A stretch of DNA of 64,000 nucleotides, the filler included, from Stramenopiles sp. TOSAG23-6 (Eukaryota): the NCBI GenBank assembly GCA_900128565.1. It is 17 parts of 17 records of this genome, joined end to end, with 100 filler letters (N's around TTAATTAATTAA, not from the genome) between each part and the next. Parts side by side here need not be neighbours in the genome. Positions count along the whole stretch, not along the records: positions 3,795 to 7,483 come from LT637404.1; 16 more parts are not named here. One strand, 5' to 3'. Below are positions 1 to 41,206 of the stretch, one piece after another. Positions within the stretch are counted from its first letter, which is position 1; each line of letters opens with the position of its first letter. The position numbers were made by a program, and so were the translations under genes. The notes beneath the pieces are model-generated. The model did not search any database and had not been told where the DNA came from. It was given only the letters and a program-made list of their open reading frames with translations.

Positions 1-52
1 ACGAAATTTCGTACCTAACGATTTTTTTTTGAAATATTTTTTCACAATACGT

Positions 53-2923
53 GTTCCGTCACATTTAGTCCGTCCACGTGTAATAAATGATGGTGAAGGA
101 CTTCACAGTCGTCGTACTTCTATCAAAAAGGTAAAAAAGAAAGGAGCTGGTGGTTTAATGGAGGCATTATTTGGTGATTCTCAAATACGCGCAGAAATTG
201 AAGAAGAAATTAATGCAGATTTAGCCTCTGTAGAAGGTATTGCATGGGCAAAGTCGATGGCAAATGCCGCGGTCGCTGCAGTCGCAAGTGCAAAAACAAC
301 AAATTCGCAAACTCAAAAAAACGTAAATGTTGTTGAGATGATAGATAAAAATAATAGACAAACTTCAAATGAACAAACTACAAAAGTAGAATCTAAAAAC
401 ACTAGTTCAAAAAATAATGCCGTTCCCGCTATAGATATAATAAAAAATAAAGTGGAAGTAGTAAAAGAAGAGATAAATGTAAAAAAGAATAATGTAACAA
501 ATAAAATCGATACAACAAATGAAACAATTCAGGAACCTAGGAATAAAATCGATACAACAAATGAAACAAGTCAGGAACCAATTCAGGAAACTAGAAATAA
601 AATCGATACAACAAATGAAACAATTCAGGAACCAATTCAGGAACCTAGGCGACCCATTGTGTTAAAAAGAAAGAAAGTAACTATAAAATTAGGCCAACGG
701 CGTGTCCGTCTATGGGATGTTGCAAAAAGCCGCAAAATTACTTCTGATCAATGGCCAACTGTTAATAAACTATCAGTCTATTTAGATGATCATCCTACAC
801 ATGCTCCTATTTTAGATAGAGAACATCCAGGTTTAGCTTATGATGGTATGCGACATAGTCATGTCCACACTGAGAAATTAATAAAATGTCTACAAGAAGT
901 CAGAGTTGATGAACAAACTGCAGATAAACGTCGGAAAAAAATTCGTGATGCCAAAGCGTCTATATCTCAATCAAAGCAAACAGATGGGCGTAGACGAAAA
1001 AAATACGTGAAAGGTGTGAAGAAACAAAAAGCTTTAGAAAAAGTTCGTTTGTTTTTAAAGGACTTTCCTTTCCCCTCGTATGCTACCACGGCTGATACGG
1101 CAACATTTAACCGTAGTCGGGGTGTTAGGTCACTAATTCGTGCAGGACAGAAGTATAGCTTACAACATAGGAAAGGTGTTTATGCTGGAAAGCAACAAAT
1201 GGATATGAATACACAGTTACCGTACCAACGAATGTCTCAATTGTTTAATCAGCCCATGAATTATATGAATGTCGCAAACTCGTCTGGTCTTATGCCAGGC
1301 GCATGGTGTCAACCAATTGCAGGTGTGGGAAACATGTCTCATTATGGAGGTATGACTATGAGGCAAATGAATATTGGAAATAATGATCCTGGGATGTCTG
1401 GGATGTATTCTCGTCATGCACAATTCCAACAAGGATTATTTGCTCAACAGAAAGCATATCAACAAATGGTGCTCGATTTACAGCGAATGGCAAATCCTCA
1501 TGGACCAACAACGAATACGCCTGAAAATAATAGTCCTACTGATGGTAGTGGAAATGCAATAAATGACTCAGTTGGTGTCGATGGAAATGTTAATAATAGT
1601 ACTCAACAACAACAACAACAACTTCAAAGACAGCAACATTTGTTACTCTATCAAAATCAACTACAGCAACAACAGGCTGCCTTCCAACAGCAAGCTGTTC
1701 AAGCTGCCTTGATTGAAAAAATTCAGCAACAACAGGCTTCACATGCTACTATGATGCACCATCAAGCCGCACAAGCTGCTTTCATAGGTAAGTTACAGCA
1801 ACAACAACAGCAACAGGCGACACAAGCAGCTTTAATTGAAAAAATACAACAACAACAGGACCAGGATGCTTTGGTGAGTTCGAAAAATGCTCCTATGGAG
1901 ACAAATATTAAATCAACGAGTCAAAGTGAGCAACAAGATGCTCTTGAAAAAGTGAAACAACAATCTCTTTCATCAGAAACAAATGTTCCAAAATCTATGA
2001 TTGGTACAAACAATAATCCACAGTTCATTGGAAATAATCAAAATGTTCAAAATGTTCAAAATGTTTTAGCTCTTGAAGGTGCTTTGAGTGCTTCTGTAGA
2101 AAATGCCAAAAACTTTGTTCAAACCGAAAATGAAGATATCATTTCGAGTGGCCATCAGAAAACTACAGAATCTGTAAATGATGGTATTACAAAAGGTAAT
2201 GAAGGTAGTGTAATGGAAAATGTCTCAACCGTGGCAAAACCTACTAATGAGATTATTCCTGATTCTACTGTAAATGAATCATTTAACCCTAACCCTTCTG
2301 CTACTTCTACTGTAAATGAATCATTTAACCCTAACCCTTCTGCTACGATGCCTTCAAATCCAACTCCCTTGATTCCACAAACTTTCAACCCTGGTTTTAA
2401 TGGAATTCCAAATTTGTTTCAAATTCCTGGAAATGTGTCAAATGCTGCGGCAAATTACCAAAGAATGTTGATGCTTTCTATGATGTACAACCCCCAACAA
2501 ATGGCACAAGCCCAGATGTATGCTCATATGCAGCAACAGCAACAGCTACAGCATTTAAAACAGCAACAATTACAGCAGCAGCATATTCAGCAACAGCAAC
2601 AACAGCAATTGAAAGAACATCATTTATTTGAACAGCCAGTAGAAGTACAATCAAAACATATGGATACAGAAACACAAGCTACTGAAAATTCACCTACGAA
2701 TGAAGATAACAAAGATGTTTTACAATCTGAAGACCAAATTGAAAATTCACCTGTACATGAAGAAAATAAAGATATTTCAAAATCTGAAAATTCACTCATA
2801 AATGAAGAAAACAAAGATATTTCAAAATCTGAAAATTCACCTATAAATGAAGAAAATAAAGATATTTCAAAATCAGAAGAAGAGCCACAACAGGAAGAAA
2901 TTATCCAAAAAAACGTAAAATAA
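53..2923 (+). CDS. Terminal exon of a large Q/N-rich protein with a BRK-like domain (CHD7/kismet/BRM-type C-terminus)
   Basis: Long ORF starting after an intron 3' end (AATACGT|GTT at 52/53). GQRRVRLWDVAKSRKITSDQWPTVNKLSVYLDDHPTH resembles the BRK motif; poly-Q tracts follow. Confidence 0.6.
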   Translation, partial: VPSHLVRPRVINDGEGLHSRRTSIKKVKKKGAGGLMEALFGDSQIRAEIEEEINADLASVEGIAWAKSMANAAVAAVASAKTTNSQTQKNVNVVEMIDKNNRQTSNEQTTKVESKNTSSKNNAVPAIDIIKNKVEVVKEEINVKKNNVTNKIDTTNETIQEPRNKIDTTNETSQEPIQETRNKIDTTNETIQEPIQEPRRPIVLKRKKVTIKLGQRRVRLWDVAKSRKITSDQWPTVNKLSVYLDDHPTHAPILDREHPGLAYDGMRHSHVHTEKLIKCLQEVRVDEQTADKRRKKIRDAKASISQSKQTDGRRRKKYVKGVKKQKALEKVRLFLKDFPFPSYATTADTATFNRSRGVRSLIRAGQKYSLQHRKGVYAGKQQMDMNTQLPYQRMSQLFNQPMNYMNVANSSGLMPGAWCQPIAGVGNMSHYGGMTMRQMNIGNNDPGMSGMYSRHAQFQQGLFAQQKAYQQMVLDLQRMANPHGPTTNTPENNSPTDGSGNAINDSVGVDGNVNNSTQQQQQQLQRQQHLLLYQNQLQQQQAAFQQQAVQAALIEKIQQQQASHATMMHHQAAQAAFIGKLQQQQQQQATQAALIEKIQQQQDQDALVSSKNAPMETNIKSTSQSEQQDALEKVKQQSLSSETNVPKSMIGTNNNPQFIGNNQNVQNVQNVLALEGALSASVENAKNFVQTENEDIISSGHQKTTESVNDGITKGNEGSVMENVSTVAKPTNEIIPDSTVNESFNPNPSATSTVNESFNPNPSATMPSNPTPLIPQTFNPGFNGIPNLFQIPGNVSNAAANYQRMLMLSMMYNPQQMAQAQMYAHMQQQQQLQHLKQQQLQQQHIQQQQQQQLKEHHLFEQPVEVQSKHMDTETQATENSPTNEDNKDVLQSEDQIENSPVHEENKDISKSENSLINEENKDISKSENSPINEENKDISKSEEEPQQEEIIQKNVK

Positions 2924-3103
2924 TAATTGTAAGCAGAGTCACTCAAAAAAACGTAAAATAATAATTGTAAGCAGAGTCACTTGAATTTAAATTCAACGTC
3001 ATAATGAAAAAATGATAAATCAAATCAAATGGAATGAGAGTAATAAAGTCCCTTATATAACTTGAATAATAAATTACTCTCAACCGTATAAATCTTTTTA
3101 ATT

Positions 3104-3640
3104 TCAAATATCTTTCCAATAATTTTTTAGAAAATCGCGCATACACTGTACAATATTTGAATGATCTACACTATTGGACGACTCATGGCGCCAAATTACT
3201 GTACCGTTCTTTTTCGAATCGCTTGAATCATTTGATGTCATGGCTATCAGCACATACGAATTATTTATCTGTGATTCATCTAATTCAATTGAAAAAATCA
3301 CATTCCATTTTGATGATTGCAAAGTATGTGGTAAATTCACTCTTAAAAATTTCTTTTCTCGATGCACAAAAACACAATTATTCGCAACACTAATTGAAGA
3401 CTTTTGTGTTTTTTTATCCCATGATGTCCAAATTTTCCTTTTTGAAAGCACAATCATGAGTGCGTGACGTTGTAGCAACTGTAAGCATACAATAATAGAA
3501 CATATTGTGAAAAATAAAAAAAAATAAAAAATCGTTAGATACAGAATTTTCATAGTAAAAATGAAAGAATAAAAATTGAAATAACGTACATGCTCAACGA
3601 GAATAGAATGCAGTTCATTCGTGGATTTCAGGGAGCGTCC
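3104..3640 (-). CDS. 3' exons of an unknown protein (exons 3640-3590 and 3499-3104)
   Basis: Frame is kept after removing family intron 3500-3589; no family recognised. Confidence 0.5.
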   Translation of the reverse strand, partial: GRSLKSTNELHSILVEHVRYFNFYSFIFTMKILYLTIFYFFLFFTICSIIVCLQLLQRHALMIVLSKRKIWTSWDKKTQKSSISVANNCVFVHREKKFLRVNLPHTLQSSKWNVIFSIELDESQINNSYVLIAMTSNDSSDSKKNGTVIWRHESSNSVDHSNIVQCMRDFLKNYWKDI

Positions 3641-3694
3641 ATGTATTTTGGAAAAATATTTGAAAAAAAAAAAACTAAAATTTGTTAGGTACAA

Positions 3695-3794
3695 NNNNNN
3701 NNNNNNNNNNNNNNNNNNNNNNNNNNNNNNNNNNNNNNTTAATTAATTAANNNNNNNNNNNNNNNNNNNNNNNNNNNNNNNNNNNNNNNNNNNN
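3695..3794. other. Artificial contig linker (N44-TTAATTAATTAA-N44); 16 such linkers split the window into 17 contigs
   Basis: Identical 100-nt spacer recurs every ~3.77 kb, and contig length decreases along the window. Confidence 0.98.
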
Positions 3795-3849
3795 TTTGTA
3801 CCTAACAAATTTTTTAAGATTTTTTTTCAAATATTTTTCCAAAATACAT

Positions 3850-6633
3850 GGAGTAAAGAAGGACAAAAACCAATAGCTGCAACTATAGATTTAGGAAAGA
3901 TTCACACAGATGCGCAGAAACAAAGAGAATCAAAAAAGTGGAAAGAAGAACTAAAAAATAAATGGACGAATCGATCACTGATGACATTCAAACTTGGTGT
4001 AATTGGAGGTGAAAATAATAGTTTTAATAGAAAAGATAAAAAATCCAAAAAAAGTCAACATTCAAAATTATTCTCGACATCAAATGAAAAAGATGATAAA
4101 AGTGAAGAAATACAAAACAAAAAAATATTAGATCAGTCTAACCCTCCGAAAAGGATTAAGAATACTTCACTTATTGTACGTTTTTCAAAATTGAATGTTT
4201 TACCTTTTTTTTTTTTTTGGTTTTCGTACGAAATTTTGTACCTAACGATTATTTTCAAAAAAAAAAATATTTTTTCTCAATACTTCAAGAACGAGCAGAT
4301 TTTGGTCTTTGGGGTTCAGATTCATCATTTGAAGAGGCAAAACAGAATAATATATTTGCAACTAGTGGAGACACACATTGGTGGAAGAAAAATGAATCAG
4401 GTGCTAAACATGCCCGGTCAGCTAAAAAACATGCTAAAAAATTAAAACAGTTAAAAAAACAAAATTTTCATACAAAGTATGAAAAACAAAATAAAAGAAA
4501 GAAAAATTTTGAAAATCGAAAAAAAGAAAGACTTGAAAATGAACAGACTATTTTAATGAGTCAAGAAATTGTTGATGAGAATCCTAACCCTAACCCTACG
4601 ATAGAGAATACTTTATCTCTTTCAAATTCTATACAAAATGCTGCTTTAGTGTCTTTATACGCATCATCATATATCACAAGTCACGTACACGAAATATACA
4701 AATGTGTGACAATAAAAGTTGCCGCTTTAGTATCCTCTCTCGCAGTGCATTGTATTACAATAAAAATAGATCCAATTTTACAAGAAATTTCTTGTATAGT
4801 ACAAGAAACTGAAATTGCACGAAAAAATGCAATGTTACTGAAAGAATTGGCAGAAGAAAGAAAAAATCGTACTATAAAAAAAAATCAATCATTAAAAACA
4901 AAAGACTCAAAAGAAGTCATAACTTTAGAAGAAATGCGTAATGATACGTATAGTAATCCTCGTAAACAGCAACATTCAAGTGGTATTAAAGGATCAAAAG
5001 GATCTAACAAAAGAAGAAAAGCAAATAACAGAAGATCACGTGGTTATTCAATTAGCTCGGATACTCCATCAAGAGATCGATCAAATTCTTTAGTGTCTAT
5101 TGCAAACGATATTGAAAAAACACCAACTGTTCCTGTCTTGGTAAGATCTTTGTCTTCTTCTTCTGGAAATTTTCAAAAGTCTGGTAGAAGTCGAACATTT
5201 CTTTCACCTACACCACCAACATACTCGCGCTCTCTATCTACACCATTAGCTACTGCAGAGCTTCGAAGACGAGATGCGTTAGCTCGAAAAGCTGTATTGA
5301 AATCTAGAAANCAGAACAATGTATGTTTTATTTTTTTTTTGTTTTTTTTTTTAAACCGAAAAAAAAAATCGATTTTTTTTTTTTGTATGAAATTTTGTAC
5401 CTAACAAAAAACATGAAAATATTTTCCTAAAATACATGTCAGACGATTATCAAATTCGTCTGCAAGTTCAATTGGTAGTGATTCAACAGAAGAGAGCGAA
5501 ACGGACAGTGGTAGCAATTTATGTCCGGAGACACCTTCTGTAGAATTGTGTAGGTTTTTTCATCATTTTTTTTCCACCAATTTCGAATGTATTTATTTTG
5601 TACGAAATTTTGTACCTAACGAATTAATTTTTTTTTTTTCTTTTCACAATACATTTGGTACAAGTCCTCCAAATCATCCCAATGGATCTCGTGTATATTA
5701 TTCACGTGAATATTTAGAACTTCTCTCGGCTAAAGACAAAATTGATTCGAAACTTAAAAAGCATTCACGAAGGAAGCCAAATGACAAAGCAAATAGACTG
5801 ACCAAGACCCAAGTAAAATTATATAAGAAGCAATCGGTTACGATGAAGAAACAATTAAGTGAAATGAAACAAAGAATGAAATTTGTTAAACTACGCGAGA
5901 CAATGATTGAAGATGGGACGTTTGAGCCAATGGCAGCAGTGCGTCGTCGAAGTCGTAAAGATAGTGAAAGTAGTATCAGAAGTGCCGCAGATGATGAAGT
6001 AGCAGAAATAAATGTAAATATGGTTGTAGCAAAAACACCAACGGAAAAAATTAATACTCCTGAAAATTCTCATGTTGTTTTGTTTATGAAATTTCATGAA
6101 AATTGGTCGTGGCCCATAAACCCTAGTACTAGTCCCTCATATGATGATACCGACACAACTTCTTTTACTTCAAAGAAAAGCGAAAATATGAATGGAATTC
6201 TTGTTGTTGGTTTTTCAGATGGTTCTATTTTATATGTATGTTTTATTTTTTTTTTTTACAAAAAAATCTTTTTTTTTTCGTACGAAATTTTGTACCTAAC
6301 ATTTTTTTTAGATTTGTTTTGAAATATTTTTCCAAAATTCATGGATGTCCAAATTCTGAAGAATCTTTCAAACTAGTACAAACACCTTCGTGGGTTTCAA
6401 AAGATCCGGCGGAAAGAAATATGCGATCACTTGCAGTTATAAATCCAAAAAAAGCCCCTAACCCTAATAAAAATTGCAGTCAAAATTTTAATCCTAAGAC
6501 TAATTCTATTTCACGAAAAATTGTAGCTGGGTATGATACTGTCACACAAATATGGGATGGTGATACTGGAAAACATATTCGATCTGAACGTCGAAATAGA
6601 GCAGTGCTTCTTCATATGTATGTGACAATCAAT

Positions 6634-6671
<38 letters not shown>

Positions 6672-7429
6672 TTTTTTAAAAAAAAAATCCATACGTAAAA
6701 ATTTTTTTTTTTTTTTTTTTTTTCAAAGATATTTTCTAAAAAAAAAATCCATATGTAACAATTTTTTTTTTTTTTTTAATTTTTCTGACAATATCGGGTT
6801 ACAAATGGAAATGAAGTGGCAACTGCAGATGACTCAGGTTTTATATCGATATGGTCAGTATCAAAATCAATACAACAATTAAGTGTACAACTATCATCTC
6901 TTCTGTTAAGCCCAGTAAATGCTGTACCTGTATGTTTTTTTTTTTTTTTCAATTTTTTGTCTACATTTTTTTTTCGTACGGAATGTCGTACCTAACAAAA
7001 AAAATTAAATTTTGAAGAATATTTTTCACAATTCATGATTCGCCACGTAGAAAGAATTCTATGTATAGCCCAGCTCTATATGCTGCGCAACAAATGGAAT
7101 TAAATGGGAGTGATGTGGTTATTAGTGATAGCATGTATGTTTTATTTTTTTTTCAAATTCGATTTTTTTTTTCGTACGAAATTTCGTACCTAACGATTTT
7201 TTTAGATTTTTTTCTAAATATTTTTCCAAAATACATTAGTATAATGGCACTTGGTACAGATTTTCTTATTGCTGGATCTAGTAATGGTCTAGTAGAAATT
7301 TGGAACAAACATGATGGTCGGAGTATATATGTCAATAATTCAGCTCATATAGGAAAAGTCACTTCTATTGGTATGTCAAAATGTTCTGAAGCACGGTTTG
7401 GTAGAGCTGACGAAACAACGACTGTCATA
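3850..7429 (+). CDS. Multi-exon protein with a low-complexity N-terminal part and WD40-like repeats (partial)
   Basis: Eight exons join in one frame when family introns 4176-4285, 5321-5437, 5550-5654, 6236-6342, 6618-6796, 6930-7036 and 7135-7236 are removed. WD-like motifs: VVGFSDGSI, ATADDSGFISIW, IAGSSNGLVEIW. Confidence 0.7.
4176..4285 (+). mobile_element. Non-canonical introner-like intron, GT-TT
   Basis: ATT|GTACGT...GTACCTAAC...AATACTT|CAA; removal joins two ORFs in frame; TT on both sides. Confidence 0.75.
5321..5437 (+). mobile_element. Non-canonical introner-like intron, GT-AT
   Basis: AAT|GTATGT...GTACCTAAC...AATACAT|GTC; frame restored. Confidence 0.8.
6236..6342 (+). mobile_element. 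Non-canonical introner-like intron, GT-AT
   Basis: TAT|GTATGT...AATTCAT|GGA; frame restored. Confidence 0.8.
7135..7236 (+). mobile_element. Non-canonical introner-like intron, GT-AT, consensus-like copy
   Basis: Perfect GTACGAAATTTCGTAC palindrome plus CTAAC; AT|GTATGT...AATACAT|T. Confidence 0.8.
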
Positions 7430-7648
7430 GTATGTTTTATTTTTTTTTCAATTTCGAATTTATTTTTTTTCGTACGAAATTTTNNNNNNNNNNNNNNNNN
7501 NNNNNNNNNNNNNNNNNNNNNNNNNNNTTAATTAATTAANNNNNNNNNNNNNNNNNNNNNNNNNNNNNNNNNNNNNNNNNNNNTTTTTTTTCGTACGAAA
7601 TTTTGTACCTAACAAATTTTACAAAAAAAATATTTTTTCACAATACTT

Positions 7649-10600
7649 GCGTGTTGAAAAACTAAAAGTAAAAAATAATCCTATCCAAACCATGGAAAAG
7701 ATAAAGTCAAAAACTGAAGCGGAATATCAAGTGACTATTGCAACTTTGGAAGAAAAAGTTGACGCATTGGTAAAGACAATAAATGAATCAAAACACAACA
7801 ATAGTGAAAATATGGAATTTACAATGCGAGGGTTACAGGAGAAAATATCAGAATGTAACTCCCTTCAAGATTCAAATTCAAATTTAGAGTTACAAATAAA
7901 AAGATTACAGAATAAGATCAACAACATGAAAATTGTACATGCAAATGAGAAAGAAATAATCAAACAAGATGTACAAACTGAATTTAAAAACTTTCGTACT
8001 CAAACGGAAAATAATGAAACAAGAGCTCGTGGAACTGTCATGTACGTTTTCAAAATTGAATGTAAATGTTTTTGTGTACCAAAATTTGTACCTAAGAAAA
8101 AAATTGAATGTAAAATATTTTTTCACAATACATGTATGTTTTTTTTTTTTTCAATTTCAAATTTAGTTTTTTTTCGTACGAAATTTCGTACCTAACGACT
8201 TTTTAATGATTTCGTGTTTTTTCACAATACATGGAGCTTGAAAAACGTTTAGCTCTTGCTATCAAGAAATATAAACTTGGCGAGGAACGTTATAATGAAA
8301 GTATCAATAAGCAAAACAATCATTTTTTAGAATGTATGTTTTATTTTTTTTCAAATTCGAAGTTTTTTTTCGTACGAAACTTTGTACCTAACAAATTTTA
8401 GTTTTTTTTTTTTCAAATATTTTTCCAAAATACATTATCTTTGAATGCAGATAAAATAATGAAAGAAGCTGCGGCAGATTTACGGTTGAAAAAATTTTCT
8501 GCTTCATCAAGTGACAAAAATAAAGAAGCAAATGTTGAATTTCAAGTGGCTAAATTAAAATTTGCTGTAGCAAAAAAAGAATGCGAAGTTTTATCTCGTT
8601 TGAAATCAATCTATGTAGAATTTCAAGTAAAAAATATAAATAAAGATGATATTGACAATAATATCATTTCTGAAATAAATATGACTACAGAAACGGCAGA
8701 TCAACATATTGAAAAATCAGGAAAATCACAAGAAACTACATCGAATCAAAAATTATGTGTACTTAAAATACAACTTGATAAAGTATTGCAAGAAAAAGAA
8801 GAAATGGAAGAACGATATGAAAATAATATACGTGTATTAAAAGACACAATACGTGAATTATCTATTCCTCCCTGGTTGAGTTGTGTTTTTCCAGATGACT
8901 ATGAAAACAGTAAAACAAAATCGCAAAAATTATCTACTACTACAGGTGTGAATAGCGATAGTACACATACATATTATAACTATGGATCTGGACAAGACAA
9001 TATGAGTCATATAAATGAAGAAAAACTTCCATGTCAAAATTTTGTACCAAAGAAAACTCCCGATGATAAAACACCATACAAAAGTCTTTCTGAACATTTT
9101 AGAATTATATGTCAACGCCAAGCATTTGAAATCGTCAAGATGCGCCAAGGTTTAATAAAAGTGTATAGTGATCACTCAATATCCATAAGGGAATTACAAA
9201 AGATGTTGCATAACAAGAATGAAAAGATAAATCAATTAAATCAAAATTTATTTGAGAAAGAAGAAGAAATTGCTAATTCTAGTCGGAATCTATCGAAAGA
9301 AGATTTTTTAAAACTTGTCCCATTAGGTATTAAAGAAAATGTAGCCATTAGAATGCGTGATTTAAGTTTGATGCTTACACAAATGGAAACATTGAAAAAT
9401 CGCTATGAAAGTCGCGCGGAACAGTTATCATCCTCTATCACGTCCGTCACTGAAACACTTAGCCAAACAGAAAATATGCTTGAAGCAGCTACGCGGAAAA
9501 TAGAAGCACTTCGATTAGCTCTTGCGTTCTCCAATATTCCTGATTCTATGATTTCTCGATTACTCGAAGCAATGGAAACGATGTCAAAAGAATGTAATAC
9601 AAATATTTGTGATTTGCAAACAAATCATCAAGATTTTCTTCTGAATAAGTCGAAAGATATGAGGCCAATCCTAGCTCTTTTAGATACGTTACGTATCGTT
9701 CAACCACGAGGCAAACTTCCTCAGACAGAGTGTATAGATTCATCTTTGTTAAACGAAAGTATGTCTGGGAATAACATTGGAAAGCGTGTTTTTGTTGAAG
9801 AAATGGTAAACAAGGGGAAAAGTAATAAAAACAAGAATATAGAAGATGTATACCATAAGATTACAAAAGGGACAAAAGCGCGTCGACTTCGCGTAGCATA
9901 TTCCATGAATAAAAGTTCAATAGATAATTCTCAAATATCAAATGAAAAGGTTATCAAACATGCAATTGGTAAAAACAAATATCAAAATAATATGGCAGAA
10001 GCAAGAAAAAGTGCTGCAGCATCTGCGACGACATTCGCAAGAGCTAGTCGATGGACTGCAACGAACAACACGAAAAATAAAAAAGCTGAAAGTAAAATAG
10101 GTAATACACATTCATCACAAACACATGTCTCGAAATCTAAATCAAATAAAACATATAGTGATATTTATGATGCTCAAATGTCTACATCAAGGGATACTAT
10201 TATCAATGAAATATCATTAGCAATTCGTCAAATTTCATATCGTGCTGAAGCATTAGAATCATTGCTTATTCAGAGTGAATCAAAACGTTGTAATAGTTTA
10301 GTCTCTTCTGCAACCTCAAAACTAGAGCAAGTTATAGAAAAGATAGCAATTCAACAAGCTGAGTCCGTTGTTAAAACAGATGTATTGAATCGCCTTATAA
10401 ATCAAGTAGATAAATCCTCTGAAATTTTGATGGCACTCTCTGCAGCGGAAGCTCGAGCAGAAGTAGCTGAAAGCGAATTGGAAAAAGTTCGTGAAGCTGA
10501 AAGATTTCGCGCTAATGTTGCAGAAGAAGACAGATCAAAATGTGAACTGAAATTATCATTAAAAGAACGCGAAATGGAAAATTTAAGAATTCAGAATGGA

Positions 10601-10903
10601 CAATTGACTTTATCACTTCAAGAAAGAACAACACAAGTTGCTGTTTTGACGGATGCATCAAATGCATTGAGCGGAGTCCACTCGGAAGATTTATCTCCTT
10701 CAGTCCCACCAAAAATGTCTGAAATATTGGAATCTCACAATGATGAAAGCATACAACAAGTCATTGCTAATCTTACATTGCATGCTTTGAATTCTTCCTC
10801 ACTTGAAAGTAATACAAGGAAAGAAGTATTGTCGCTTCGAATTCAAATTCGTGAATTAATTATTGAACAAGAACAATTAAGAAGAGAAGTTAATAGGTGG
10901 CGC
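7649..10903 (+). CDS. Large coiled-coil protein (partial; exons 7649-8041, 8233-8333, 8436-10903)
   Basis: E/K/L/Q-rich heptad ORFs join in frame after removing introns 8042-8232 and 8334-8435. Confidence 0.7.
8042..8232 (+). mobile_element. Two abutting family introns (8042-8133 and 8134-8232) with no exon between them
   Basis: GTCAT|GTACGT..AATACAT|GTATGT..AATACAT|GGAG; each unit has its own core motif. Confidence 0.8.
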
Positions 10904-11006
10904 GTATGTTTTATATGAATTTCTAATTTAATGGGTTTTTTTCGTACGAAATTTCGTACCTAACAAATTTTAGTTTTTTTTTTTGAAATATTTTTTCATA
11001 ATACAT

Positions 11007-11197
11007 TATTGATAATTCACCGCATGCCTTCGGATACCAATTAGATAATGGAATTCCAATATTAAGCTGGTTTGATGACCAAAATGACACAGAACTGCTC
11101 TCACTCCTTCCATTTCTGGAAAGTTTGCTGCAAGTTGATGATGTCAGGCCACATGTCAGAAATCAATTTCGTCTGTATAAATTTGTGGAAGAAGCAA

Positions 11198-11202
<5 letters not shown>
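11007..11202 (+). CDS. C-terminal exon of a CTD small phosphatase-like (CTDSPL2/SCP family) protein
   Basis: Manual translation [56 protein letters not shown]; not in the ORF track. Confidence 0.8.
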
Positions 11203-11250
<48 letters not shown>

Positions 11251-11432
11251 TAAAAAAAAAAAAAAAAAAAANNNNNNNNNNNNNNNNNNNNNNNNNNNNN
11301 NNNNNNNNNNNNNNNTTAATTAATTAANNNNNNNNNNNNNNNNNNNNNNNNNNNNNNNNNNNNNNNNNNNNTTTTTCGTACGAAATGTTGTACCTAACGA
11401 ATTTTTTTTTGAAATATTTTTCCAAAATACAT

Positions 11433-11760
11433 GAAATCTTTGCTCTCTTATTTTGGAAAGGATACAGAGAAAACCGACACTTGTCCTCCTGGAGAACTAC
11501 GTTTAATTTGTGATATAAGTGGTGGTCGTATTTTTGATGTACTTCAGAATGAAAAAAATAAAATAGTTAGAAAGAAAATTACTGGAATTCATAAAATAAT
11601 AATTTTAATTGGACCTGAAGGTGGCTTTAGTAGTGATGAGGTACAAGCTGCAATAGAGTGTGGCTTTGTCACTGTATCATTAGGTAAAGCACGTCTCCAC
11701 GCAGAAACGGCTGCTATAATAGCTTCAACTTTTGCATCAGATTTTCTTGGAGAGTTATAA
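11433..11760 (+). CDS. rsmE: C-terminal exon of an RsmE-family (SPOUT) rRNA methyltransferase
   Basis: ILIGPEGGFSSDE...VSLGKARLHAETAAI motif. Confidence 0.85.
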
Positions 11761-11978
11761 AAAAAACATAAAATATATAAATAAACTACAGTGTAAGGAA
11801 AAAAAATGAAGTGTACACATTACATACATTGATATTATGATAAACATAAAAAGGTAAAACAAATAATGTTGCATACATTGATATTATGATAAATATAAAA
11901 AGGTAAAACAAATAATGTATTGATATTATGATAAACATAAAAAGGTAAAACAAATAATATTGAAATCTTTAAATTTAT

Positions 11979-29763: not shown

Positions 29764-30089
29764 ATAAACTTCAAAAAGTTAAAAAAGAAATAAATTCCAC
29801 ATACAAACACTCTACTGGAAACGGTACAGATCTTGAAAATCATAATGAAAATCATAATGAAACTTGGATTGTATGTTGAATTTTTTTTCAATTTTTTTAT
29901 ATAATTTTTTTTTAATTTTTTTTTCGTACGAAATTTCGTACCTAACAAATTTTTTGTTCAAATATTTTTCCAAAATACATGTCGCCAGATCTCTTGAAGA
30001 AGCACAACAAAAAGCAAAGAGTGAATTTAATATTCCTCTAATAAGTGATATTCAAAATGATAATAAGTTAGTATTAGATGGCTATACAT
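29764..30089 (+). CDS. VARS: Two internal exons of valyl-tRNA synthetase (intron 29871-29980)
   Basis: Spliced WI|VARSLEEAQQKAKSEF resembles the ValRS segment that follows the RIPAY motif. Confidence 0.6.
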
Positions 30090-30307
30090 GTATGTTCTTT
30101 TTTTTTTTTTACAAAAAAATTCGATTTTTTTTTTCGTACGAAATTTTGTACCTAACAATTTNNNNNNNNNNNNNNNNNNNNNNNNNNNNNNNNNNNNNNN
30201 NNNNNTTAATTAATTAANNNNNNNNNNNNNNNNNNNNNNNNNNNNNNNNNNNNNNNNNNNNAACAAATTTTAAAAAAAAAAAAATTTAATATTTTTCCAA
30301 AATACAT

Positions 30308-31391
30308 GTCAAGGTCTGATGTAATTTGTCCTATTTTTATAACAAGTAATGTAACTGGACGAGGTGTAACTGATCTTCGTGATTTTTTATCTTTGTTACG
30401 GAAACCACCAACGAAGGAAATTTTTGGGAGTAATCAAAGAAAATCACGAAATCTTGAAAAACTAAAAGCAGAAAAAAGTAATCTTTTGAAAAAAATGAAT
30501 TCTTGTAGTTTGAATGATTCTGTTCTGTCAGCTAATGTTGCAATTGATACAAAGACAAATATGAACAGTGTGAAAAGTACTTTGAAAAGTACTTTGAAAA
30601 AGAAAACGAGTCCTCCACTATCTGCATTTTCTGTTGGAAATAAAAACGAGTTTAATCCACAACCAATTTCAGATGGAACAAATTCTAGTGCTAGTGAAAA
30701 TTCTACTTTAGGCGTTTTTCAAATAGATTCAACATTTAGCGTCGTTGGTGTTGGCTTAGTTGTATCTGGGTCAGTATTTCGTGGAAATTTTACATTAAAT
30801 GATACTGTTATTTTAGGACCTGACAAAGCAGGTCAGTTTGTCCGTGTTGTTATTAGAGGGATTCATTCCAATCGTGTTCCAGTGCCTACTATAGGTGCTG
30901 GTCGTTGTGCTTCTTTTGCTATTCGTTGTGCATCTAAACGAGGTTCTTCGAGATCAATTAGTAGAGACACAATCCGTAAGGGGATGATGTTACTTGATGA
31001 GTCTACACCAAAGGATAAACTATGTGCACGGACATTCGAAGCAGACGTTGTTATNTTACATCACCAATCTACTATTGGAGTTGGCTATGTTCCAGTAATT
31101 CATATAGGATGTGTACGTCAACCTGTTCTAATTACAGAGATTAAGGTTATTGACAAGCGTAAAAAAAGAAAAGTAAATGGAAGTCNTACNATGAATGCAA
31201 ATCTAAATGAACAATCTGTACAATCGACAAGATTGCGTACTGGGGATCGTGCAAAAGTTGTCTTTCAGTTTGTAAATTACGCCGAATATGTTGAATTAGG
31301 TCAGTTATTGTTGTTCAGAGAAGGATCTGCAAAAGGTATGGGTCAAATATCACGTATTATTGAACCGACAGGAACAATCCTGTTGCGATAG
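30308..31391 (+). CDS. GTPBP1/GTPBP2-like translational GTPase, terminal exon
   Basis: PIFITSNVTGRG, FSVVGVGLVVSG, LRTGDRAKVVFQF, LLFREGSAKGMG. Confidence 0.88.
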
Positions 31392-31701
31392 ATTTTTAGA
31401 AGAAAGAATGAAGAAGAGAATGCAGTACTCATGAAAAAGAGTACCTAACAATATATAATGAAAAATGTAGAGGCAATGAACTAAAATAATTTTGTTTTGT
31501 GTATACTANATATAGATATNGAATAGTAATGATATTATAGCTGCTATATATAGATATTGAATAGTAATGATATTATAGCTGCTATATATAGTGTATACTT
31601 AAAATTTATTAGGTACGAAATAATGTATTCCCAATATATTGTACATTGTAATATAAGTAATATAGAATATAATAATTTTTGATTGTTTTATGTTAGAAAA
31701 T

Positions 31702-33845
31702 TTATTTTTCAACATTATTTTCATACCATTGAATTTTCTCTTGCAGAGTTGATATCATCTTTGACTGTTTGTCAGAAGCAACACGAAATCCATTAATTTT
31801 CATATCATGCTCTTTTTTGATGTCTTCAATGTCCTTCGTTTTTTTCTGTATTTCAGATTTCAAAAATGAAATTTCTTTCATATATTTTTCTTTCATTTCG
31901 TCCAATTTTTGAAATGTTTTTTTTTCTTCTTTTCGTTTTAAAATTGCAAAATTTCTCTGAAATTTTAATTTTTCCTCCATAACGCAATTTTGTATTGATT
32001 TATTATTTTCATCAATTGTATTCGATTTCGAAAAATNTGTACCAAATTTTGTAGTTGAGTAATTTTCAATATTTTTTTCAGAGGACGCTATAGCTCTTTT
32101 TCTAGATAATCCAGGTGTTGTAAACCGCAGCGAGGAGTTTGGTGTTGTGACTTGCACATACTTAATATTGTCACTATTACAAGTNACTTCGTGAGNCTGT
32201 TTTTTTATATTTGGTGTTGTTACATTTTCAGGACGTTTCATGATTTCATTGAACTTTTTTTTTGGTGTATACAAACTTACATCATTTACATTATTTTTTT
32301 TATACGAATTTTCATACGAAATTTGATGTTCACTTGTTTTCATAACAGAAACATNTTTTGTACAATTTTGTATAGAACTCATTGCATCAAACTCTCTACG
32401 TGCAAATTCCCAGTCAACTACAAAAAGATCATCATCTATATTATTTCGTGTTTCATTGAAATGTACTGTATTTCGTGTTTCACATGGATTTTGGTACACT
32501 AGAAAATGGTCATTTCCTAAAATAATTCTGTCATTATGAAACAATACAGTAGATGAAAGTTCATTAGTAATTGAATATCCATTGACATATACCACTGCAT
32601 TAGGTGCAGCAAATATTGTCGTTACAAAAACCATTTTATTTTTGTCCAACAAATCAATTTCCTTATTTTTCATGTTTTTTTCAATCAAATCCATTGTCTT
32701 ATTTTTCGTGTTTTTTTCTTCCATCAAATTACCATTTCGACCTGTACCATACATTTCCCTTGCTTCAGAAATAGGTACATGAAAAATTTGTAATACGCAA
32801 TGTTCTGCTAAAATATTTTTGCCAATTAACAAAATGTCAGATTTTGAAGATTTTCGTGTTTTTAGATTTCGTGTTTTTGTGTCCGTTGTCGTAATATGTT
32901 CATGAATTGGTTGAAAATTACTATCACTACCAATACACGTAAATGTACCTAATGGATACTGTAACGATCTTGAAAAGATTGGATCAGGATTTAAATTTAA
33001 TAAAAAAGGAAAAGAATTTTTCAACGAAGAAGTTGTTGGTGACGTCATACTGTCTGGTGACGTCATAGTGTCATTATTTTGTACTACTATATTTTTTTCA
33101 TGTTTTTTTTGAGATGAAATAATTCCTTTTGATACTATTGCATATTCATTAGCCATTGCTATATTGACATTTTCGCTCATCTCAATAATAAGAGCCTCAC
33201 GATCATTTAATGCTTCTCGTAAACGTTGATTTTCTTCTTTCAGTATATTTCGTTTTTCGTGTTTTTCGTATTTTTTATCCAATTTGGAATTTCTATCATT
33301 TAATTTTATTTTCAACTGAAGTATTTCTTGACGTAAATGACGTACTAAAATCATATCATCATTTTCATTCACAGACACACGATTTATGACTTCTTTTGCT
33401 CTTTCTATATAGCGTAACGTATTTAAGGTTTCTTCATAATATATATCTGCAGGGCATATTGTTGCCAACATGAAATTTTGTGAAAATATTTCAAAACATT
33501 TTGATGTTTTTTTGTTAGGTACGAAATGTACTACAAAAAAAAATTTCAATTTTTTTTTACATTAATTTTTTTTGTTTTTTTGTTTTTTTGTTTTTTTGTT
33601 TTTGTTACACATTTGTCTATAAAAATACATATATGAACAACATACATAATTGTTTTTGAATTTCCACCCAATGACTCTTTTAAAAGCCATGTAAGTACAG
33701 AATTTCTATACGGAATAAATGAATTTTTTTTTGTATTTTTAGACGAGAGTGAAAGGATGACGTCACCAAGAGCTGATAATGATTTATTTATACAAACGGC
33801 TTCTTTTGTAGTGCATTGTACTGTATTTCCAGTATTTATACTGAG
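31702..33845 (-). CDS. Kinesin-3-like motor (end of motor domain, FHA-like region, coiled coil); intron at 33470-33645
   Basis: [50 protein letters not shown]. Confidence 0.88.
33470..33645 (-). mobile_element. GT-AT family intron in the kinesin motor domain
   Basis: ATTAT|GTATGT...TTTCAT|GTTG restores KTIMLAT. Confidence 0.85.
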
Positions 33846-34081
33846 AAAATATTGTGCAATAATAATTCTTTGTTAGGTACAATACAAAAATACAAAAATA
33901 CAAAAATACAAAAATACAAAAATACAAAAATACAANNNNNNNNNNNNNNNNNNNNNNNNNNNNNNNNNNNNNNNNNNNNTTAATTAATTAANNNNNNNNN
34001 NNNNNNNNNNNNNNNNNNNNNNNNNNNNNNNNNNNAACAAATTTTAAAAAAAAAAAAATTTAATATTTTTCCAAAATACAT

Positions 34082-35165
34082 GTCAAGGTCTGATGTAATT
34101 TGTCCTATTTTTATAACAAGTAATGTAACTGGACGAGGTGTAACTGATCTTCGTGATTTTTTATCTTTGTTACGGAAACCACCAACGAAGGAAATTTTTG
34201 GGAGTAATCAAAGAAAATCACGAAATCTTGAAAAACTAAAAGCAGAAAAAAGTAATCTTTTGAAAAAAATGAATTCTTGTAGTTTGAATGATTCTGTTCT
34301 GTCAGCTAATGTTGCAATTGATACAAAGACAAATATGAACAGTGTGAAAAGTACTTTGAAAAGTACTTTGAAAAAGAAAACGAGTCCTCCACTATCTGCA
34401 TTTTCTGTTGGAAATAAAAACGAGTTTAATCCACAACCAATTTCAGATGGAACAAATTCTAGTGCTAGTGAAAATTCTACTTTAGGCGTTTTTCAAATAG
34501 ATTCAACATTTAGCGTCGTTGGTGTTGGCTTAGTTGTATCTGGGTCAGTATTTCGTGGAAATTTTACATTAAATGATACTGTTATTTTAGGACCTGACAA
34601 AGCAGGTCAGTTTGTCCGTGTTGTTATTAGAGGGATTCATTCCAATCGTGTTCCAGTGCCTACTATAGGTGCTGGTCGTTGTGCTTCTTTTGCTATTCGT
34701 TGTGCATCTAAACGAGGTTCTTCGAGATCAATTAGTAGAGACACAATCCGTAAGGGGATGATGTTACTTGATGAGTCTACACCAAAGGATAAACTATGTG
34801 CACGGACATTCGAAGCAGACGTTGTTATNTTACATCACCAATCTACTATTGGAGTTGGCTATGTTCCAGTAATTCATATAGGATGTGTACGTCAACCTGT
34901 TCTAATTACAGAGATTAAGGTTATTGACAAGCGTAAAAAAAGAAAAGTAAATGGAAGTCNTACNATGAATGCAAATCTAAATGAACAATCTGTACAATCG
35001 ACAAGATTGCGTACTGGGGATCGTGCAAAAGTTGTCTTTCAGTTTGTAAATTACGCCGAATATGTTGAATTAGGTCAGTTATTGTTGTTCAGAGAAGGAT
35101 CTGCAAAAGGTATGGGTCAAATATCACGTATTATTGAACCGACAGGAACAATCCTGTTGCGATAG
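34082..35165 (+). CDS. GTPBP1/2-like terminal exon (duplicate contig)
   Basis: Identical to 30308-31391. Confidence 0.85.
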
Positions 35166-35475
35166 ATTTTTAGAAGAAAGAATGAAGAAGAGAATGCAGT
35201 ACTCATGAAAAAGAGTACCTAACAATATATAATGAAAAATGTAGAGGCAATGAACTAAAATAATTTTGTTTTGTGTATACTANATATAGATATNGAATAN
35301 TAATGATATTATAGCTGCTATATATAGATATTGAATAGTAATGATATTATAGCTGCTATATATAGTGTATACTTAAAATTTATTAGGTACGAAATAATGT
35401 ATTCCCAATATATTGTACATTGTAATATAAGTAATATAGAATATAATAATTTTTGATTGTTTTATGTTAGAAAAT

Positions 35476-37619
35476 TTATTTTTCAACATTATTTTCATAC
35501 CATTGAATTTTCTCTTGCAGAGTTGATATCATCTTTGACTGTTTGTCAGAAGCAACACGAAATCCATTAATTTTCATATCATGCTCTTTTTTGATGTCTT
35601 CAATGTCCTTCGTTTTTTTCTGTATTTCAGATTTCAAAAATGAAATTTCTTTCATATATTTTTCTTTCATTTCGTCCAATTTTTGAAATGTTTTTTTTTC
35701 TTCTTTTCGTTTTAAAATTGCAAAATTTCTCTGAAATTTTAATTTTTCCTCCATAACGCAATTTTGTATTGATTTATTATTTTCATCAATTGTATTCGAT
35801 TTCGAAAAATNTGTACCAAATTTTGTAGTTGAGTAATTTTCAATATTTTTTTCAGAGGACGCTATAGCTCTTTTTCTAGATAATCCAGGTGTTGTAAACC
35901 GCAGCGAGGAGTTTGGTGTTGTGACTTGCACATACTTAATATTGTCACTATTACAAGTNACTTCGTGAGNCTGTTTTTTTATATTTGGTGTTGTTACATT
36001 TTCAGGACGTTTCATGATTTCATTGAACTTTTTTTTTGGTGTATACAAACTTACATCATTTACATTATTTTTTTTATACGAATTTTCATACGAAATTTGA
36101 TGTTCACTTGTTTTCATAACAGAAACATNTTTTGTACAATTTTGTATAGAACTCATTGCATCAAACTCTCTACGTGCAAATTCCCAGTCAACTACAAAAA
36201 GATCATCATCTATATTATTTCGTGTTTCATTGAAATGTACTGTATTTCGTGTTTCACATGGATTTTGGTACACTAGAAAATGGTCATTTCCTAAAATAAT
36301 TCTGTCATTATGAAACAATACAGTAGATGAAAGTTCATTAGTAATTGAATATCCATTGACATATACCACTGCATTAGGTGCAGCAAATATTGTCGTTACA
36401 AAAACCATTTTATTTTTGTCCAACAAATCAATTTCCTTATTTTTCATGTTTTTTTCAATCAAATCCATTGTCTTATTTTTCGTGTTTTTTTCTTCCATCA
36501 AATTACCATTTCGACCTGTACCATACATTTCCCTTGCTTCAGAAATAGGTACATGAAAAATTTGTAATACGCAATGTTCTGCTAAAATATTTTTGCCAAT
36601 TAACAAAATGTCAGATTTTGAAGATTTTCGTGTTTTTAGATTTCGTGTTTTTGTGTCCGTTGTCGTAATATGTTCATGAATTGGTTGAAAATTACTATCA
36701 CTACCAATACACGTAAATGTACCTAATGGATACTGTAACGATCTTGAAAAGATTGGATCAGGATTTAAATTTAATAAAAAAGGAAAAGAATTTTTCAACG
36801 AAGAAGTTGTTGGTGACGTCATACTGTCTGGTGACGTCATAGTGTCATTATTTTGTACTACTATATTTTTTTCATGTTTTTTTTGAGATGAAATAATTCC
36901 TTTTGATACTATTGCATATTCATTAGCCATTGCTATATTGACATTTTCGCTCATCTCAATAATAAGAGCCTCACGATCATTTAATGCTTCTCGTAAACGT
37001 TGATTTTCTTCTTTCAGTATATTTCGTTTTTCGTGTTTTTCGTATTTTTTATCCAATTTGGAATTTCTATCATTTAATTTTATTTTCAACTGAAGTATTT
37101 CTTGACGTAAATGACGTACTAAAATCATATCATCATTTTCATTCACAGACACACGATTTATGACTTCTTTTGCTCTTTCTATATAGCGTAACGTATTTAA
37201 GGTTTCTTCATAATATATATCTGCAGGGCATATTGTTGCCAACATGAAATTTTGTGAAAATATTTCAAAACATTTTGATGTTTTTTTGTTAGGTACGAAA
37301 TGTACTACAAAAAAAAATTTCAATTTTTTTTTACATTAATTTTTTTTGTTTTTTTGTTTTTTTGTTTTTTTGTTTTTGTTACACATTTGTCTATAAAAAT
37401 ACATATATGAACAACATACATAATTGTTTTTGAATTTCCACCCAATGACTCTTTTAAAAGCCATGTAAGTACAGAATTTCTATACGGAATAAATGAATTT
37501 TTTTTTGTATTTTTAGACGAGAGTGAAAGGATGACGTCACCAAGAGCTGATAATGATTTATTTATACAAACGGCTTCTTTTGTAGTGCATTGTACTGTAT
37601 TTCCAGTATTTATACTGAG
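35476..37619 (-). CDS. Kinesin-3-like protein (duplicate contig)
   Basis: Identical to 31702-33845. Confidence 0.85.
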
Positions 37620-37991
37620 AAAATATTGTGCAATAATAATTCTTTGTTAGGTACAATACAAAAATACAAAAATACAAAAATACAAAAATACAAAAATACA
37701 AAAATACAANNNNNNNNNNNNNNNNNNNNNNNNNNNNNNNNNNNNNNNNNNNNTTAATTAATTAANNNNNNNNNNNNNNNNNNNNNNNNNNNNNNNNNNN
37801 NNNNNNNNNTTAATCCATACAACCGAAAAGCGACAGAAAAGAAACTTGGACAAGATGAATTAAGTAATTCATGTATTTTAGAAAAATATTTCAAAAAAAA
37901 AAAAAATATTTGTTAGGTACAAAATTTCGTACGAAAAAAAAATTCGATTTTTTTTTTTTTTTTTCGGTTAAAAAAAATAAATAAAACATAC

Positions 37992-39945: not shown

Positions 39946-41206
39946 TCATTTGACACTCTTCTTCACGTTAAAATCAATATCTGTGCTAGAAGTATCACTA
40001 CTTGCAATATCACTACTTGTAGTTTCAGTCTCATTGCTTGTAGTGTCAATATCAGTACCCTTTTCTTTAGTTGTACTGTTATGACCGATTAGTAATATTA
40101 TCAATAGTCCAATAAATATTAATCCCAAAGACACAAAAAAAAGGACGGTAGTCAGCGGATCCAGACTGTCCAATTCTTTAAACAAAGCTGCACCACCAAG
40201 AGAACCCGAAAGAATGAAGAATGCTTGATATATTGGCGTAATTATAACGGCATCCTATGGTGTACAAAAATATTTTTTTGAATTTTTTTGATTTGTTTTA
40301 ATTTGTATTGTTAGGTACGAGATTTCCTATGAAAAAATAATGTACATTAAAATAAGAATTCTTGGACAAAAACGTACATATCGTCTCAAACCTTCATTGA
40401 GTATTAGTAAACCCCCAAGTCCACTTGTGATTGCAAAAAACAATATGATATAGGTTCGAATATCTTCCCATGGTTTTCCTTTATTTTGTGAAAATATTTA
40501 AAACAGTTTTGATTTTTTTTGAGTATAATTTTTTTGGAAAAAAAAACTGAAATATTTCAGAAATAAAAAAAAATATTGTAATTGAATTGAATTTTGAAAT
40601 TAATGATTGAAAAACATACTCCCAAGTGAAGTAAAGAGTAAAAATGATTTACAAAAATATAAGCTTCCAGAAAAGGCACCACTGATACATCCCCATATAA
40701 TATTTGATAATATTTCAAAAATTAAAACAAACATTGTTAGGTACATATATTTCATAGTACAAAAAAAAATTCAAATGAAAAAAAAATAAAAAAAAATTTC
40801 ATAGTACAAAAAAAAATTCAATGAAAAAAAAAATTCAAATGAAAAAAAAAATTCAAATGAAAAAAAAATCTATAAAAAAAAAAGATTAAACTTTAGGGTT
40901 AGGGTCTTTGGAATAATGAGCACCTACATGCTAACTTTTTGATATTTACTGGAGCCACTTTTGAAGAAATTATCATCACCATTATAAGACAAAATAATAC
41001 AAAGCATAAAATATATATTATGAAACCCTTATCATGATACAGTTCAATAATTTCTTGATATGTGTAGGTTTCGTGATGTTCTTCTGAAGCGACAAGGCTA
41101 AGAAAAATACTTCCAAAAACAACATATATTGTGAAAAAATATTTTGTTTTTACCGAAAAACAAAATTTGTTAGATATGCAATCTTTTCAGACATTTTTTT
41201 TTTAAC

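Follow-up and report, generated by a model that had tools for sequence, protein, structure and literature searches.

In a 64-kb stretch of DNA from Stramenopiles sp. TOSAG23-6 (assembly GCA_900128565.1), which as a whole is called the window here, a 16-nt palindrome that runs directly into the motif CTAAC is probably the branch-site core of a stereotyped, introner-like family of spliceosomal introns whose 3' ends are not AG. Comparison with homologous genes indicates that the copies are introns, in that they interrupt conserved coding sequence and their predicted removal restores the reading. The piece that has to be removed consists of the element plus 2 nt, and it is flanked by a 2-nt direct repeat that is specific to each locus and mostly AT. 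The window comprises 17 contigs of ~3.6-3.7 kb each, ordered by falling size and joined by linkers of the form N44-TTAATTAATTAA-N44, so that genes on different adjoining contigs are not genomic neighbours. The arrangement can be followed in a single copy, in which the slash, here and below, marks a cut:

7133 to 7134, plus strand: AT, with which the exon ends and which is also the 5' copy of the flanking 2-nt direct repeat, placed by comparison of flanks
7135 to 7236, plus strand: deduced intron of 102 nt, made up of GTATGT...AATAC (7135-7234) and a further AT; its removal preserves a WD40-like frame
7135 to 7140, plus strand: 5' splice-site hexamer GTATGT, placed from the hexamer census and from two GT-AG siblings cut at /GT
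7174 to 7189, plus strand: 16-nt palindrome GTACGAAATTTCGTAC, able to form a 6-bp hairpin with a 4-nt loop (-6.5 kcal/mol); its right arm would be the upstream part of an extended branch-site motif
7190 to 7194, plus strand: CTAAC branch-site motif, with the presumed branch A at 7193, 43 nt before the deduced 3' end
7203 to 7205, plus strand: unused TAG, its AG 12 nt past the branch A; use of this AG would put the TAG stop at 7237-7239 in frame
7216 to 7234, plus strand: conserved 3' block AAATATTTTTCCAAAATAC, which ends in the AATAC pentamer (alignment A2)
7235 to 7236, plus strand: AT, with which the deduced intron ends (CAT/, from the end census); also the 3' copy of the repeat
7238 to 7239, plus strand: in-frame AG 3 nt downstream, an alternative canonical acceptor in this copy only (AG census)

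The upstream exon of this copy ends ...AGC AT, and the downstream exon begins at 7237 (T AGT ATA ATG...). The branch A is placed at 7193 by analogy with TACTAAC.

A reading made from the sequence alone (the sequence-only reading) had described the palindrome as perfect and fused to CTAAC, and this is what stands at 7174-7194; TACCTAAC is thus present. With up to two mismatches, GTACGAAATTTYGTAC has 37 copies in the 64 kb against a shuffle mean of 0.01, with none of 100 shuffles reaching 37, and when the palindrome copies are oriented by CTAAC they are found on both strands. The variant singled out earlier for its G-U pairing, GTACGAAATTTTGTAC, turns out to be the commonest form of the core; the pair concerned, 5-12, is GU in 15, GC in 12, AU in eight and something else in nine of the 44 distinct cores. 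The recurrence of other palindromes, also remarked on before, is upheld for inexact copies, since AAATTCGAATTT occurs exactly once only and 17 times at up to one mismatch, against 2.0 expected. The conservation lines of alignments A1 and A2 agree with the earlier impression that conservation is higher in the core than in the T-tracts on either side. Within the core the right arm and CTAAC are richer in information than the left arm across 68 motif hits (a biased set, as the hits were chosen by GTACCTAAC), and in 52 cores, themselves motif-selected, T, A and A of CTAAC are invariant and C is at least 90% conserved. We infer that recognition of the branch site extends upstream into the right arm of the palindrome (UUUYGUAC), over a sequence GUACCUAAC that a changed U2 small nuclear RNA (snRNA) may match.

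The full-length copies, of which there are 22, measure 89-135 nt (median 102.5) and share one layout: GTAYGT, T-runs with a loose AAATTCGA motif, (C)GTACGAAATTTYGTAC-CTAAC, further T-runs, the conserved block ATATTTTTYCAMAATAC and then 2 nt. Twenty begin with GT; the 5' hexamer is GTATGT in 12 and GTACGT in four, with six variants found once each, and CTAAC lies 53-87 nt from GTAYGT. The core follows 24 of the 33 distinct GTAYGTTT sites, and two more of these sites are truncated by contig ends, so that nearly every intron-like site in the window belongs to this family. Its copies sit in genes for a WD40 protein, a sterol oxidase fusion, an OGG1-like gene and an ELMO-domain protein, among others, and a metagenome scan with the 21-nt core returned one locus, L001, a typical copy with AT/AT flanks. 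At least three subtypes of the 5' half recur (GTATGTTTTATTTTTTTTTCAAATTCGA..., GTATGTTTTATATGAATTTCTAATTTAAT... and GTACGTTTTCATCATGAATTTC...), as do two subtypes of the 3' end (...CCAAAATAC and ...TTCACAATAC), which suggests several waves of spread. At 60434-60935 (plus strand), six branch-site cores stand in tandem, 48-190 nt apart, within one T/A-rich stretch ending ...CAATAC/AT, as though the core had been duplicated inside a single intron.

The proposal that the copies are introns is borne out by homologue junctions in two conserved genes and by a uniform orientation, all 22 tested copies being sense to the longer flanking open reading frames (ORFs) and none antisense. The junctions concerned belong to the following introns:

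17002 to 17101, minus strand: family intron in the FA_hydroxylase part of a fused gene, where the homologues P0002, P0004 and P0007 read ...YAGARFHDFHHKNFTGNY unbroken
51940 to 52055, minus strand: family intron in an OGG1-like gene, with the unlike flanks GT/TT, placed by homologue tiling
52175 to 52285, minus strand: family intron in the same OGG1-like gene, between ...LFSLDAF and AVPVDTHVW, with one split codon between the exons (alignment A3)

At 17002-17101 the exon side reads ...YGGARAH/ and matches the homologues residue for residue, and there is no AG within 21 nt downstream. The public coding sequence (CDS) P0001 translates through this intron from a shifted frame and starts inside the oxidase domain, an annotation error that arose because the non-AG intron went unrecognised by the annotators. 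In the OGG1-like gene the three exons fit end to end on four homologues, with neither gap nor overlap (alignment A3), and at 52175-52285 use of the first downstream AG would remove AVPVD. Searches at near and at longer lengths found no transcript-derived proteins across the OGG1-like junctions. Elsewhere, Pfam yielded nothing usable for short exons. As for the gene that holds the first of these introns, 15679-17878 (minus strand) is a single gene fusing a sterol C-4 methyl oxidase (FA_hydroxylase) with a 3-beta-hydroxysteroid dehydrogenase (3-beta-HSD); the FA_hydroxylase/3-beta-HSD fusion is seen in many hits, two Amoebophrya proteins among them.

The position of the 3' end emerges from a census of frames, in which each element was counted from the G of GTAYGT through the last base of the AATAC-like pentamer and had to lie between long flanking frames. 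Among 21 confident introns, the number of extra nucleotides (modulo 3) whose removal keeps the frame is two in 18, one in none and zero in three (binomial p~1e-6). The suggestion that AATAC marks the acceptor is thereby strengthened, because the frame-keeping cut lies a constant 2 nt beyond it in those 18. The deduced last two intron bases are AT in 17 of the 22 full-length copies, TT in two, and AA, GT and GC in one each. That the 3' end is not AG had also been claimed, and the AG census agrees: in just 3 of the 22 copies is there an in-frame AG among the next 12 nt, in seven the first 21 nt downstream contain no AG whatever, and a usable AG is absent at the three junctions checked against homologues. 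Hidden AG acceptors were rejected as an explanation on these counts. AGs inside the element appear to be skipped, as had been noted for the TAG at 7203-7205, and this copy is one of eight in 22 with an AG 10-22 nt past the branch A. Given the in-frame AG at 7238-7239, the intron at 7135-7236 is by itself no proof of non-AG splicing; other copies are.

The constant cut suggests that the acceptor is set by the AAUAC block rather than by an AG or by distance from the branch. The distance from the branch A to the 3' end, put at 33-44 nt from five copies in the sequence-only reading, proves wider in 22, at 34-51 nt with a median of 41 (32-49 nt to the C of AATAC), and a spread of 17 nt means that neither the hairpin nor the branch site can be the ruler. 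The larger idea, that branch point, structure and AATAC together replace recognition of AG, is in this way borne out for the position of the branch site and for AATAC and not for the hairpin.

Two siblings with ordinary ends bear on which bonds are cut, and one of them is as follows:

40255 to 40377, minus strand: sibling intron with a related core (ATAGGAAATCTCGTACCTAAC) and a canonical GT...AG end; exact removal from /GT to AG/ joins the sole long open frames, of 40 and 102 codons

The surrounding gene may be NIPA-like, and the frame argument alone serves for this intron. A second GT-AG sibling lies near 20579 (minus strand), and in both the frame is preserved only if the intron begins precisely at /GT. 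At 51940-52055, similarly, a cut at /GT ends the exon ...KIYDKVG, whose G is conserved in 4/4 homologues, while a cut 2 nt upstream gives V. From such comparisons of sequence we favour a 5' cut immediately before GT (/GT), with the 3' cut placed 2 nt beyond AATAC and mostly of the form CAT/. The rule of element plus 2 nt extends to a pair of adjoining copies:

8042 to 8232, plus strand: two directly adjoining family introns, 8042-8133 and 8134-8232, without any exon in between, reading ...CACAATAC AT GTATGT...

The frame at this locus requires both elements to be removed with 2 nt each. An RNA-library contig holds the same back-to-back arrangement at another locus, with a joint of 7646 to 10904 and AT between. 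The family intron at 45034-45131 (minus strand) has the 5' hexamer ATATGT in place of GTATGT and still fits the frame rule of element plus 2 nt.

The flanks of the elements carry signs of mobility. At 19 of 28 loci the dinucleotide before GTAYGT equals the one after AATAC, where 14.1 would be expected (permutation p=0.005); most of these loci are AT/AT, two are TT/TT and one is AA/AA. Loci with unlike flanks include 51940-52055, 52175-52285, 13332-13431, 6930-7036, 29871-29980 and 19697-19832. We read this 2-nt flank repeat, with moderate confidence, as the probable signature of a 2-bp target-site duplication, and the family would have spread like an introner, creating an intron where it landed. 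There is no autonomous copy in the window. Two other views of the element's symmetry were rejected. Pairing of the intron ends as a rule founders on copies with AATTC and with GTACGT, in which the GTAT/ATAC match is lost without compensation; a foldback element is contradicted by the T-richness of both halves on the sense strand, which leaves only the 16-nt centre symmetric.

In the mechanism that we propose, the spliceosome would cut at /GUAYGU, branching would take place at the A of CUAAC, and the second cut would fall 2 nt after AAUAC, to give mostly CAU/ where other eukaryotes have CAG/. The left arm of the palindrome could close a weak hairpin over the core, of -6.5 to 0 kcal/mol, with no sign of selection for pairing. 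A bolder form of the proposal, about which we are more doubtful than confident, is that the major spliceosome of this stramenopile lineage has moved to a rule of 'AAUAC plus 2 nt' for most introns, that an introner spread the rule, its 2-bp target-site duplication providing the final two intron bases, and that GUACCUAAC is matched by a co-evolved U2 snRNA. Were this so, the cut would be measured from an internal motif and be independent of the terminal dinucleotide, because the target-site duplication supplies the last bases, and the family would have escaped notice through being translated in public gene models.

Four other explanations bear on the same observations. The sequence-only reading suggested that a hairpin may position the acceptor, and a functional RNA hairpin might present the branch A or help to bypass nearby AGs on the way to a distant non-AG acceptor, which we consider unlikely. 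RNAalifold does find the hairpin as the sole consensus structure of the 22 full introns, with its U-A, A-U and C-G pairs invariant and the inner five pairs mostly preserved, and changes at two pairs are mostly compatible with pairing (pair 5-12 is GC in ten, GU in nine, AU in two and CU in one; pair 6-11 is AU in 19, GU in two and AC in one); at least 4 bp of the stem are folded in 33 of 44 distinct cores, and in full-length copies the left arm is conserved like the right. The consensus energy, however, is only -2.3 kcal/mol; single copies give -6.5 kcal/mol (the perfect palindrome), -4.4 (the G-U form) and weaker values as far as 0, and the whole intron 7135-7236 has z = -1.72, with 9/200 shuffles folding equally well. 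Covariation, the check that had been suggested, yields no signal for the named 6-bp stem: paired cells make up 79.5% against 79.0% after shuffling, 146/500 shuffles score as high, and among 52 cores (44 distinct) no pair has changed on both sides. Substitutions show no preference for pairing, the outcome that the sequence-only reading had named as its refutation. In 18 of 44 rows A.C stands at the first pair, and two inner pairs are broken in the GTAGTAAAT subfamily. Many copies that otherwise look functional disrupt the stem, ATAC... and GTAGTAAAT... forms among them, and it falls below 4 bp in 11 of 44 distinct cores. The claim that the hairpin positions the acceptor finds no support in distance either, the interval between the two varying by 17 nt (34-51). 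A role for the hairpin is possible but unsupported. The palindrome might instead act on DNA, as a binding or cleavage site of a mobilising enzyme or as a relic of one, with its overlap with the branch site secondary. The perfect dyad nests the palindromes GTAC and CGTACG, and perfect dyads with nested restriction-like palindromes are typical of sites bound by protein dimers; the signs of mobility (2-nt repeat, high copy number, tandem or internally duplicated copies) and a weakly palindromic C-AT-G insertion context, from a by-eye count of flanks, point the same way. We think this quite unlikely, given that the palindrome is central, neither terminal nor subterminal, that the window holds no transposase ORF (a Pfam scan of 28 of its long ORFs named no transposase family) and that 22/22 copies are sense to the gene. 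Degenerate copies, moreover, keep the right arm when the left has decayed, which points to a strand-specific constraint at the level of RNA.

The identical flanks also admit shifted boundaries, with the 3' cut directly after AATAC and the 5' cut 2 nt before GTAYGT, which would make mostly AT-AC introns (/AUGUAUGU...AAUAC/) of which the duplicated AT supplies the first two bases. The messenger RNA (mRNA) would be the same at the 19 of 28 loci with identical flanks; an A first and a C last, as in the AT-AC introns of both spliceosomes, are known as a workable pair of intron ends; and when the end of a GT-AG sibling (...CACCATAG) is set against the family end (...CACAATAC), the C aligns with the G of AG. 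This arrangement is nevertheless very unlikely: at 51940-52055 the glycine shared by 4/4 homologues would become valine, the GT-AG siblings share the 5' hexamer and have their cut precisely at /GT, and the two bases before GTAYGT vary (AT, TT, AA, GT, TG, CT) as a 5' splice site does not. We give scarcely any credence to removal of the elements from DNA rather than RNA, in the manner of the short eliminated sequences of ciliates. Those sequences lie between two copies of a 2-nt repeat, one of which is retained, and the present elements are likewise short, AT-rich, dense in coding sequence and flanked by a 2-nt repeat of which exactly one copy would be left; no spliced RNA was seen, and one border is unspliced in an RNA library. 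Against this stand the strict sense orientation (22 to 0), a spliceosomal-type 5' hexamer and branch motif in the right order and spacing, and sibling copies with normal GT-AG ends, and we know of no DNA elimination in stramenopiles.

Several observations weigh against our reading of the palindrome and CTAAC as the core of a non-AG intron family, or limit parts of it. Four marine runs containing 5-18% of the window's words were searched for RNA evidence, and no spliced joints were seen in them at an exon depth of ~3, in assembled contigs with repeat-induced false joints; an RNA-library contig crosses the exon-intron border at 8042 unspliced, possibly as pre-mRNA or carried-over DNA. Three introns, at 10904, 29629 and 25500 (minus strand), are exact-length exceptions to the rule of 2 nt. 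At the first of them the C-terminal part of what we take, from its motifs, to be a phosphatase domain follows an unrelated 838-aa ORF without a Pfam match, and this contig may be chimeric. The repeated flanks mean that most junctions cannot show which bonds are cut, and 51940-52055 is the only junction that separates the two readings of the cut sites, through a single conserved residue. As the repeat is mostly AT, the identity of the flanks could partly be splice-site preference and not duplication, and the terminal inverted repeat is only GTAT/ATAC, 4 nt. Among the 22 full-length copies the left arm (TAC, A, AA) varies little or not at all, which could reflect function, and the covariation test has low power because the copies are young and similar. 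The analysis covers one window of short, possibly chimeric contigs. The placing of the host, finally, goes back to a source label: the ORF at 15679-17250 (minus strand) has 98% identity to the EukProt-labelled CDS GSMAST32.ASY1.ANO1.1614.1, and we read GSMAST32 as probably denoting an uncultured MAST-3 marine stramenopile in a draft single-cell assembly of the kind described in PMC5778133.

The family's features are those of U2-type introns in their interruption of coding sequence, 5' consensus, YTRAY-type branch site ahead of a pyrimidine tract and restriction to the sense strand, and the 3' AG is missing. U12-type introns have the 5' site RTATCCTT and a distance from branch to acceptor of ~10-20 nt, include the AT-AC class and tolerate non-AG 3' ends. 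The present introns resemble them in having conserved 5' and branch sites, GTATGTTT being similar to RTATCCTT and TACCTAAC to TCCTTAAC, and they differ in their long T-tracts and in being the main intron type of the window rather than a rare class. A U12-type identity was rejected, the 5' site being GTATGTTT or GTACGTTT with no CC at +5/+6 and the branch lying 34-51 nt from the end. With yeast-type introns they share GTATGT, a near-invariant box ending in CTAAC and short length, whereas their box GTACCTAAC has an extra C, their 3' end is not YAG and the copies are alike along their full length.

Introner elements were reportedly a subject of Huff et al. in 2016. These mobile elements give rise to introns, and Micromonas, Aureococcus, Symbiodinium and Chrysochromulina are among their hosts according to a recent survey (Gozashti et al. 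2022, PMC9860276). As the same survey describes for introners (PMC9860276), near-identical short introns are present here in many unrelated genes of a marine protist, with direct repeats at their borders as target-site duplications, so that the element and one copy of the repeat are spliced and the mRNA is unchanged; in some of its families the element brings the 5' site and the duplication supplies the 3' site, as we suppose to be the case here. Where introners with duplications have repeats of 3-9 bp and are mostly GY-AG in that account (PMC9860276), the present repeats are of 2 nt and the ends non-AG, and the 4-nt inverted terminal repeat and the strict central branch-site palindrome are also unlike the introners that it describes. 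In the parasitic dinoflagellate Amoebophrya the majority of introns lack GT-AG, as the genome paper relates (Farhat et al. 2021, PMC7789003). The resemblance lies in repeated intron families in a marine protist, in which direct repeats that overlap the borders blur the exact cut, and a hairpin was proposed there to aid splicing (PMC7789003). Both ends vary in Amoebophrya, however, where inverted repeats of 8-20 nt pair the intron ends and direct repeats measure 3-5 nt (PMC7789003); here GTAYGT and CTAAC are conventional and only the 3' dinucleotide departs, the palindrome is internal, beside the branch site, and it does not pair the ends.

Most introns of the larvacean Fritillaria borealis escape the GT/AG rule, and a recent preprint (Soo et al. 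2025, 10.1101/2025.08.15.670264) suggests an adaptation of its major spliceosome, in which duplicated subunits of U2AF recognise 3' ends other than AG. Unlike the present family, which keeps GT, the introns of this animal are non-canonical at both ends. In the main texts of two introner surveys the string 'MAST' is absent, and in a partial supplement of the 2022 survey (PMC9860276) it matches Mastigamoeba only. A description of this family was found in none of the literature searched, including the text of the assembly paper, with two mentions of 'intron' and neither on unusual introns, and that of the Incisomonas paper; supplements may still mention the family.

If confirmed, the family would offer a natural system with textbook 5' and branch sites in which the AG acceptor has been replaced genome-wide, and it would isolate the question of how the second step of splicing finds its site. 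To our knowledge the precedents in Amoebophrya, Fritillaria and euglenids change both ends at once; in Fritillaria, Henriet et al. in 2019 are said to have proposed an origin from mobile elements, for introns with ends AG-AC, AG-AT and similar and no strict branch motif. It would also, if true, add a heterotrophic marine stramenopile to the lineages in which a single mobile family made most introns. Public gene models of the assembly are wrong wherever such an intron lies, which affects protein catalogues drawn from these single-cell genomes.

The abundance of the family extends beyond the window, whose sequence was present only in seawater or marine sequencing runs in a run search. Core words reach a depth of ~2,000-13,000 in two seawater RNA libraries against ~3 for exons, which suggests thousands of copies in the community. 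Thirteen of 32 contig ends fall inside the palindrome or branch core, as fits an assembler breaking at a high-copy repeat. Two pairs of contigs are apparently duplicated (30262-33935 with 34036-37709, and 1-3694 with 56631-60288), having the same ORF pattern, identical terminal 40 nt and identical intron copies. Short telomere-like runs of CCCTAA/TTAGGG, set within repeated units beside or inside intron-like sequence, occur at ~62830-62920 (plus strand), at ~20740 (minus strand) and at 150-230 of L001. An Rfam scan of the window returned no snRNA and a single tRNA:

22710 to 22784, plus strand: tRNA-Phe (GAA), from Rfam, at the very start of a contig

Two further ORFs attract attention on other grounds. 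One, at 44070-45053 (minus strand), combines a MAC/perforin domain with RCC1 repeats. The other, at 42327-43736 (plus strand), is uninterrupted over 469 aa, carries an MgtC-family domain and lies in the most GC-rich part of the window (0.417 against ~0.30); MgtC is mainly bacterial, and the ORF is a candidate for gene transfer, on a contig that has family introns near both ends.

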